A DNA stretch of 750 nucleotides from Escherichia coli (GTDB lineage: Bacteria > Pseudomonadota > Gammaproteobacteria > Enterobacterales > Enterobacteriaceae). The translations under genes were made by a program, and so were the position numbers. Position 1 is the stretch's first letter, and each line of letters starts with the position of its first letter. Under the pieces are notes generated by a model. That model was given only the letters and a program-made list of their open reading frames with translations. It was not told the origin of the DNA and ran no database searches. The stretch is taken from NCBI RefSeq assembly GCF_003334255.1, contig NZ_QOWU01000193.1; one strand, given 5' to 3'. Of this stretch, positions 149 to 750 are shown in pieces.

Positions 149-268
149 GACGCTGAAAATTCAACCGTCAGTCCGGAGACGACCGTTCGGGTTATCACAG
201 AGTGCCTGAGACAGTGTCCTGCCGGAGGTCACTTCAGGGACTCTGCGTATTTTTTACGACGTGGCTAT

Positions 269-287
269 TCCGTATGAACCATACGGA
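269..287. repeat. Perfect inverted repeat, 8-bp arms with 3-nt spacer (TCCGTATG-AAC-CATACGGA), overlapping the Shine-Dalgarno of the + CDS; candidate operator or RBS-occluding hairpin
   Basis: Seen in sequence: 269-276 'tccgtatg' is the exact reverse complement of 280-287 'catacgga'; symmetry ends at 268/288. The right arm covers G285-G286-A287 of the GGAG Shine-Dalgarno; the element ends 9 nt before ATG 297. Confidence is for the repeat itself, not for any function. Confidence 0.85.
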
Positions 288-288
288 G
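285..288 (+). promoter_or_regulatory. Shine-Dalgarno (GGAG) for the + CDS starting at 297
   Basis: GGAG at 285-288, 8 nt upstream of ATG 297; seen directly. Confidence 0.6.
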
Positions 289-296
289 ATTTAACC

Positions 297-750
297 ATGA
301 CCTACAAATACAACCCCTTCTGGCAGCAACGTATTCGTGAGACGGTGCGGCACGCACTGAATGTTCATCCCCGCCTGACGGCATTGCGGGTTGACCTGCG
401 TCTCCCGGATGTACCGGCAGCAACGGACGCAGCTGTGATATCCCGCTTCATCAATGCCCTGAAAGCCCGAATCGACGCTTACCAGAAACGTAAGCATCGG
501 GAAGGTAAACGCGTGCATCCCACAACCCTGCATTACGTCTGGGCCCGGGAGTTTGGGGAGTGCAAAGGTAAAAAACACTATCACCTGATGCTGCTGGTCA
601 ACCGGGATACCTGGTGTCGTGCCGGTGATTACCGCGCTCCGGAGTCTCTGGCCGGGATGATTAAACAGGCGTGGTGCAGTGCCCTGGGAGTGGATGTCGG
701 GTGCCATGCCACGCTGGTGCATTTTCCGGCCTGGCCGGCGGTGTGGCTGG
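297..750 (+). CDS. Putative replication-initiator-like protein with HUH-type motif, YagK/YfjJ-like ('inovirus Gp2 family'-like); N-terminal 151 codons, 3' end beyond window
   Basis: Seen in sequence: ATG at 297-299 preceded by GGAG (285-288) with an 8-nt spacer; frame open from 297 to 750 with no stop (my own translation: MTYKYNPFWQQRIRETVRHALNVHPRLTALRVDLRLPDVPAATDAAVISRFINALKARIDAYQKRKHREGKRVHPTTLHYVWAREFGECKGKKHYHLMLLVNRDTWCRAGDYRAPESLAGMIKQAWCSALGVDVGCHATLVHFPAWPAVWL). Codon usage is enterobacterial-like (12 of 13 Leu are CTG, G/C-rich third positions). In-frame stop TGA at 207-209 bounds the 5' side, so 297 is the first ATG after the stop. Family assignment is from recollection of the YagK/YfjJ family plus the HUH-like motif at aa 94-101; not verified by any search. 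Confidence refers to this being a real CDS; the family call alone is about 0.5. Confidence 0.82.
   Translation, partial: MTYKYNPFWQQRIRETVRHALNVHPRLTALRVDLRLPDVPAATDAAVISRFINALKARIDAYQKRKHREGKRVHPTTLHYVWAREFGECKGKKHYHLMLLVNRDTWCRAGDYRAPESLAGMIKQAWCSALGVDVGCHATLVHFPAWPAVWL

Follow-up and report, generated by a model that had tools for sequence, protein, structure and literature searches.

In this study, we analysed a stretch of 750 nucleotides of Escherichia coli DNA (hereafter, the window). Sequence comparisons and a structural model support the identification of its positions 576-599 as the metal-binding motif of an HUH endonuclease of the Rep class. This enzyme, a member of the YagK/YfjJ family, would have one domain, one catalytic tyrosine (Y1 type), and about 190 amino acids. 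On the same grounds, the protein is very likely to be a catalytically competent Rep-class nuclease, and as such it would nick DNA and become covalently attached to it. We propose that this nickase initiates rolling-circle replication of the excised genomic island that carries its gene. The explanation as a whole, enzyme and role together, we consider slightly favoured (probability of about 0.55). The protein represents an uncharacterised branch of the well-known HUH superfamily, and databases already half-recognise this kinship. The assignment is conceptually unsurprising, since mobile elements are where one would look for HUH initiators. Our literature search found no functional study or cleavage assay of the family, and both YagK and YfjJ were listed as uncharacterised in a 2024 survey of the y-ome (PMC11551758).

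The gene and its distribution

The window is 100% identical to the chromosomes of many E. coli strains, and in strain ATCC 11775 it corresponds to positions 12001-12750 of the locus designated L001. Matches were found in 3,635 of the 5,426 complete E. coli genomes, near full-length in 3,478; the median number of matching places in a genome was two. The gene of interest lies on the + strand. It starts with an ATG at 297-299, preceded at 8 nt by the Shine-Dalgarno (SD) sequence GGAG (285-288), and its reading frame is still open at the end of the window. In the matching chromosome, the full gene (L001 12297-12866) codes for 189 amino acids, and its coding sequence would end at window position 866. 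The RefSeq entry for this protein, WP_000221544.1, is named "inovirus Gp2 family protein". The features of the window are collected in Table 1.

The divergent gene at the other end of the window codes for WP_001297219.1, which has a CxxC...CxxC arrangement and a hydrophobic C-terminal half; its PHROG matches are weak and fall in families of unknown function. Given the two CxxC pairs and the hydrophobic tail, it resembles a small membrane protein of the zinc-ribbon kind. It is a neighbour of the HUH gene, separate from the enzyme. We also considered an antisense reading frame on the minus strand (291-722, 143 amino acids in the window). In the full locus (L001 12291-13160), the call for this frame is 289 amino acids long and the stop-free stretch reaches 302, and the frame is absent even from a copy with 97% identity. 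It is very probably spurious and was rejected. A scan of the window for promoters and terminators, and an Rfam search of 5.5 kb around the gene, returned nothing.

Table 1. Features of the 750-nucleotide window. Residue numbers refer to the 189-amino-acid protein.
Feature	Position	Strand	Basis
YagK/YfjJ-family protein, first 151 codons of 189 aa	297-750	+	Translation; full gene in L001; Pfam YagK_YfjJ_C
Beta-strand 1, residues 26-35 (RLTALRVDLR)	372-401	+	Conservation; strand from model
E85, in strand 79-86 (window 531-554), nine residues before H94; presumed third metal ligand, by analogy	549-551	+	Invariant column; strand from model
HUH motif H94-Y95-H96 and LMLLV, in beta-strand 93-102 (window 573-602); presumed metal ligand pair	576-599	+	Invariant H94 and H96; strand from model
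Helix 118-130 (LAGMIKQAWCSAL) with invariant W126 (672-674)	648-686	+	Alignment; model; Pf3 ORF278 aligns over E..HUH..W
Perfect 8-bp hairpin TCCGTATG AAC CATACGGA, arms 269-276 and 280-287	269-288	+	Repeat finder; RNA fold
Long stem-loop, arms 198-209 and 234-245, then T-rich GTATTTTTTAC (247-257)	198-257	+	Repeat finder; fold
Divergent 66-aa protein WP_001297219.1, first 33 codons	1-98 (full gene: L001 11898-12098)	-	Annotation; ORF translation

The HUH motif and the invariant residues of the family

Codon 94 of the gene begins at position 576 (297 + 93*3), and positions 576-599 (CAC TAT CAC CTG ATG CTG CTG GTC) read H-Y-H-L-M-L-L-V. The translation thus agrees with the preliminary description of this DNA, which had singled out residues 94-101 as His-Tyr-His followed by five hydrophobic residues and preceded by K-G-K-K (residues 90-93). 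Taken alone, the motif is weak evidence. The bare pattern H-U-H-U-U-U was present in 1 of 278 unrelated reading frames of at least 150 amino acids from the loci fetched, so that it is expected to occur by chance several times per genome. What makes the motif significant is the conservation of H94 and H96 among homologues.

We found 691 relatives of the protein among 1.8 billion cluster representatives, and the main alignment comprises 112 full-length homologues with 32-68% identity. Only six columns of this alignment are invariant, namely E85, H94, H96, W126, Y168, and K171. The same six residues are kept in an alignment of 18 sequences and in 25 proteins derived from the loci, which reach down to 30% identity and include YfjJ of E. 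coli K-12. The H-x-H pair, whose conservation had been put forward as a check on the earlier assignment, is therefore invariant both in the 112 homologues and in the 25 locus proteins. H94 and H96 are the presumed pair of divalent-metal ligands, and by analogy with Rep-class HUH enzymes E85 is presumed to be the third ligand.

The preliminary description had also placed the catalytic tyrosine downstream, beyond the window. In the full-length protein we found an invariant Y168-L-A-K171 whose codons would occupy window positions 798-809 (798-800 for Y168). Y168 lies in a helix of the structural model (residues 156-170) with K171 just after it, which gives a YxxK motif; the single invariant tyrosine in this motif assigns the enzyme to the Y1 type. 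Further conservation is seen in the first strand, where R26, R31, D33, L34, and P37 are at least 90% conserved among the 112 homologues. This strand (ALRVDLRLP, with R31 and D33 conserved) occupies the position of Rep motif I, and its sequence departs from the uuTu consensus (e.g. FLTLT). The C-terminal tail ERNFGCS is conserved as well.

Family assignment and predicted fold

Both the profile search and the structure prediction suggested as checks in the preliminary description gave results in line with an HUH nuclease. The Pfam family YagK_YfjJ_C (PF11726) matches the protein over its full model (E 4.8e-48; residues 21-187, model positions 1-170 of 170) and matches all 112 aligned homologues. 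The family REP_ORF2-G2P (PF23343) matches locally (E 3.3e-5; residues 59-128 against model positions 19-61 of 99), a similarity confined to the HUH half, and it is recovered in 96 of the 112 homologues (E <= 1e-3; best 3e-10). Further families of HUH replication proteins (Rep_1, RepSA, Phage_GPA, and Helitron_like_N) gave scattered weak matches among the homologues, and a weak PHROG match is annotated as "replication initiation protein". No relaxase family appeared among the Pfam matches of the protein and its 112 homologues. NCBIfam yielded no family for the protein, and sequence searches of the PDB with the protein and with the 112-sequence profile found nothing.

The AlphaFold2 model built from the 112-sequence alignment is confident (pLDDT 96.3, pTM 0.91) and has the HUH-nuclease fold, with the HUH motif on a strand of the central beta-sheet. 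Its elements follow the order helix, strand 26-35, helix 47-68, strand 79-86 (with E85), strand 93-102 (with the HUH motif), helix 118-130 (with W126), strand 148-152, and helix 156-170 (with Y168). A Foldseek search of the PDB gave marginal matches only. The same search of predicted viral structures (BFVD) gave 136 matches at E <= 1e-3, and the named ones are nearly all replication proteins, chiefly microvirus replication initiators. Transposases come lower in the ranking of fold matches than replication proteins do.

The order of the motifs bears on the class of the enzyme. MOB relaxases have a conserved tyrosine N-terminal to the HUH motif and a third histidine (motif of the HxDxxxxHxH type); we found no invariant tyrosine before position 94 and no third histidine. 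The HUH motif at 94-96 followed by Tyr168, together with the lack of a conserved N-terminal tyrosine, is the arrangement of the Rep class and not that of the relaxase class. Thus, of the two options offered in the preliminary description, a rolling-circle Rep initiator or a relaxase-type nuclease, the Rep-class layout stands and the relaxase class does not, as the tyrosine lies C-terminal to the HUH motif.

The "inovirus Gp2" label

According to the preliminary description, proteins of this type are annotated as "inovirus Gp2 family", after the initiator of filamentous phages. The name is indeed that of the RefSeq entry; the protein itself, however, is no relative of gpII of the fd/M13 type. 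Neither the protein nor any of the 112 homologues matches Phage_CRI (PF05144), the family of the fd/M13 gene II product, and no inovirus was matched by tblastn against 50,697 phage records. The sole match in these records (L003; OR844780.1, positions 265-831) is an unverified and unannotated contig of 4.5 kb labelled as Escherichia phage, which is probably island DNA and not a phage.

The only demonstrable link to inoviruses is, from sequence comparison, a local similarity to ORF278 of phage Pf3. ORF278 matches PF23343 (E 1.7e-7), and its Rep motifs are legible (ALTLTV, HLHCAAFF, and YVSKH). Its E..HUH..W stretch aligned with that of the query family (hhalign E 3e-4, probability 39%). In the phage collection, we found no relatives of ORF278 besides Pf3 itself. 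ORF301 of Pf3, a Zot-type assembly ATPase that is unlike the query, was rejected as a candidate for the gene II product.

Island context and helicase linkage

CP4-57-like integrative islands share a core of genes linked to alpA, and the gene is part of it. In the island of the window, its neighbours are an AlpA-like HTH gene, a GTPase, Ag43, DUF932, an anti-restriction protein, a RadC/JAB protein, and DUF987. Most loci have alpA as the immediate neighbour of the gene. The homologue adjoins alpA in Alcaligenes, Pontibacterium, Budvicia, Klebsiella, Salmonella, Serratia, and Pectobacterium, with RadC, DUF932, and YqaJ close by, and the cargo of the islands of these genera varies and consists mostly of defence systems. 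In CP4-57 of K-12, the order is intA, yfjH, alpA, yfjI, yfjJ, and then the AbpAB defence genes; in plasmid pNDM-CIT, an alpA-yfjI-gp2 block is followed by a CBASS system. In the two collections that we searched, the family was seen only in islands, either chromosomal or inserted in large plasmids. These collections showed no small plasmid that relies on a family member as its only Rep, and no verified phage genome with a member. Conjugative plasmids of the IncI and IncHI types carry copies of the module.

In at least eight distinct loci, among them those of the most divergent family members, the HUH gene comes immediately after a YfjI-like gene with the same orientation. YfjI is a DUF3987 protein with a PHROG match to "DNA helicase" (5e-100), and one DUF3987 member has been demonstrated to be a 5'-3' helicase (PMC11724360). 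The order alpA, yfjI (DUF3987 helicase), yfjJ (HUH) can be seen in L037 (5645-8174; K-12 CP4-57) and L039 (6046-8591), and also in L018, L022-L025, L029, L030, and L033. This arrangement amounts to a split HUH-plus-helicase module. The branch of the window itself is without the YfjI helicase gene; zinc-ribbon genes come after the HUH gene. In several genera, one or two such genes (DUF7828 / Zn_ribbon_11) are found behind the HUH gene or behind the pair that it forms with alpA (L001 13126-13949, L007, L009, L011, L013, and L027).

The slot beside the HUH gene was seen to hold anti-phage systems that differ by host, among them AAA_15/DUF4435, type I restriction-modification, CBASS with SAVED, AbpAB, and RnlAB (slot coordinates: L004 353-6899; L005 179-8085; L006 13502-20657; L039 8947-13290; L037 8352-14356). 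It looks like a defence hotspot. Between the AlpA-like and the HUH genes of the island of the window, we also noted a truncated pseudogene of the Hha/YmoA family (L001 11430-11552) and about 1.6 kb of mostly non-coding DNA, which suggests a rearrangement relative to the usual HUH-alpA order.

A related core has been described in Pseudomonas islands, which share the integrase at tmRNA, intY, alpA, RadC, YqaJ, and an "inovirus Gp2-like" gene. One of them, I55, was shown to be transduced by a jumbo phage as a satellite (bioRxiv 10.1101/2024.08.29.610337).

Features upstream of the gene

The perfect hairpin just upstream of the gene covers most of the SD sequence with its right arm, and the fold of positions 262-300 reaches -11.4 kcal/mol (z -3.6). 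SD-covering hairpins with different arms and loop lengths are found in L004, L006, L009, L010, and L012. Such hairpins, with dissimilar arms, were observed in Alcaligenes, Pontibacterium, Klebsiella, Salmonella, and Pectobacterium. RNAalifold predicted no pairs for the SD hairpin, because the left arms lie at non-homologous positions, and in a pairing-probability test the SD was clearly occluded in no more than about 6 of 18 loci, against a high background. The hairpin probably limits the translation of the nickase.

Farther upstream, the long stem-loop at 198-245 (12-nt arms, -30 kcal/mol, z -4.4) and the T-rich box behind it resemble a terminator or a leader. Conservation of this stem-loop is absent in other genera. 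The T-rich box was found, in either orientation, in 19 of 23 loci, against a maximum of 16 in shuffled sequences, and in many relatives it lies about 45-58 nt ahead of the start codon. As a conjecture, the hairpin and the structured leader would be in keeping with tight repression of the nickase, which could be harmful.

Other elements of this region were inspected. The SD hairpin harbours a six-codon upstream frame (MNHTEI, stop TAA, 274-294), the end of which is 2 nt away from the main ATG. Relatives have an ATG at the corresponding position, as part of a conserved TATGAA motif; it either opens a short upstream frame or is in frame with the main one. An AT-rich hairpin at 130-148 was discarded, as it folds no better than shuffled sequences. 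We also searched the flanking sequences of 23 loci by k-mers for a conserved nick site. Only the upstream T-rich box emerged; the signals on the downstream side were traced to the coding sequence of AlpA and were dropped. No origin or nick site was identifiable near the gene; what the upstream regions share is the T-rich box and SD hairpins with non-conserved loops.

Proposed role and alternative readings

Four observations suggest that the protein acts as a rolling-circle initiator. Its gene is linked to alpA, which implies control of excision, and has an ancient link to a helicase gene; the layout of the enzyme is that of the Rep class; and a related island behaves as a satellite. We regard it as an even bet that replication initiation of the excised island is the actual job of the protein. 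In the mechanism that we propose, the island would be excised under the control of the integrase and AlpA, and the protein would then bind a specific site in the island DNA. A Mg2+ or Mn2+ ion held by E85, H94, and H96 would polarise the scissile phosphate, and Y168 would attack it and become joined to the 5' phosphate. The free 3' OH would prime rolling-circle replication by the host polymerase, while unwinding would fall to a host helicase in the island of the window and to the adjacent YfjI (DUF3987) helicase in the sister branches. The copies produced in this way could serve maintenance, packaging, or transfer. Expression would be held down tightly by the SD-occluding hairpin and the structured leader.

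Several points speak against a replication role. No origin was found, the island of the window has no YfjI helicase, strand 1 is without a canonical Rep motif I, and in the two collections searched the family was confined to islands. Moreover, the anti-restriction, RadC, and DUF932 genes of the islands fit conjugative entry of single-stranded DNA as well.

This last point leads to the alternative that survives best, although we consider it rather unlikely: the protein would work in a relaxase-like manner, nicking an oriT-like site and piloting a single strand via a helper conjugative plasmid, which would make the island an integrative mobilisable element. Rep-like HUH proteins are known as relaxases of mobilisable elements. 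The genes of the kind associated with single-strand entry (ArdB/KlcA-like anti-restriction, RadC/JAB, and DUF932) and the copies of the module on IncI and IncHI plasmids would suit such a role. On the other hand, the HUH-then-Tyr order and the structural neighbours are those of the Rep class and not of MOB relaxases, and neither a coupling protein nor an oriT was seen near the gene in the loci examined. The DUF3987 helicase in the sister branches points to replication and argues against a relaxase-like role. In the accessible part of the preprint, the one related island tested, I55, moved by phage transduction; assays of conjugation and of transformation were also part of that work.

A less probable alternative is that of an active HUH nuclease with another job, either as a single-strand transposase or recombinase (IS200/IS605 TnpA or REP-associated TnpA) or as an anti-phage nuclease. 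Fold matches that rank replication proteins over transposases do not favour the former, and the gene is single-copy within each island, which has its own tyrosine integrase; flanking hairpin repeats were not found. As for an anti-phage function, the HUH gene is part of the conserved core, whereas the defence cargo is variable.

We consider it highly improbable that the protein is a domesticated and catalytically dead Rep-like DNA-binding regulator of island genes. The classification of these islands as cryptic prophages, the many truncated copies of the gene that E. coli holds, and the presence of a DUF3296 gene of E. coli 042 in the Aar/H-NS regulon (PMC5570504) would be in keeping with such a regulator. 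Nevertheless, the invariant set in 112 diverse homologues consists of the expected catalytic residues and W126 only, and such invariance would not be expected if catalysis were dispensable. Finally, the notion that H-Y-H and its hydrophobic run are a chance motif, which draws on the occurrence of the bare pattern in about 1 in 300 reading frames, is refuted by the invariance and by the agreeing fold and profile matches, and its probability is negligible.

Our preferred reading, a rolling-circle initiator of excised islands, would have a broader consequence, which we put forward only tentatively and consider doubtful as a whole. Some two thirds of the complete E. coli genomes carry CP4-type "cryptic prophages", and these may be other than dead. 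They may have preserved an intact rolling-circle module that is linked to AlpA and under tight repression, and that consists of a stand-alone HUH nickase, in some cases accompanied by a separate DUF3987 helicase. Once excised, such islands may amplify, and they may spread as phage satellites or as mobilisable defence islands, in the manner shown for the related Pseudomonas island I55 (bioRxiv 10.1101/2024.08.29.610337). The host islands carry adhesins, toxin-antitoxin pairs, and many anti-phage systems. The predicted catalytic set of E85, H94, H96, and Y168 turns an uncharacterised y-gene family into a directly testable enzyme. The same set gives a handle on the replication or movement of the islands and bears on the spread of defence systems and virulence genes.

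Comparison with known systems

The closest known systems are YfjJ of CP4-57 and YagK of CP4-6 in E. coli K-12, which belong to the same family as the query (PF11726, formerly DUF3296 / Inovirus_Gp2). YfjJ and the query are 36% identical over the whole length, and all the catalytic-type residues are common to both. CP4-57 and the island of the window are also of the same type, with DUF932, a GTPase, an anti-restriction gene, RadC, and DUF987 in both. Unlike YfjJ, the 189-amino-acid branch of the query is without an insertion after strand 1 and without a preceding YfjI gene, and it has zinc-ribbon genes after the HUH gene.

Similarity to the replication proteins of single-stranded DNA phages is more restricted. 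Pf3 ORF278, the other PF23343 proteins, and the microvirus initiators (VP4) share with the query the local E..HUH..W domain; about 43 of the 99 positions of the PF23343 model align with the query, and identity outside the motifs is noise. Pf3 ORF278 has the same order of motifs as the query (strand 1, HUH, YxxK), and this group of proteins provides fold matches in BFVD. The PF23343 and VP4 proteins serve autonomous single-stranded DNA phages, whereas the query sits in an integrated island.

The solved Rep-class HUH domains (SIRV1 ORF119, parvovirus NS1, AAV Rep, Helraiser, and pMV158 RepB) are 10-15% identical to the query. The query lacks the fused helicase of NS1 and Rep and the oligomerisation domain of RepB, and its extra helices (7-23 and 134-140) and its ERNFGCS tail have no described counterpart in these domains. 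If the islands do amplify, the HUH nickase and the separate DUF3987 helicase would be a split version of the HUH-helicase Rep of single-stranded DNA viruses.

The "inovirus Gp2-like" core gene of the Pseudomonas islands I23, I44, and I55 carries the same annotation as the query. The likeness considered here is one of annotation and neighbours. The neighbours of that core that also lie near the query family are a P4-type integrase at tmRNA, alpA, RadC, and a variable defence cargo.
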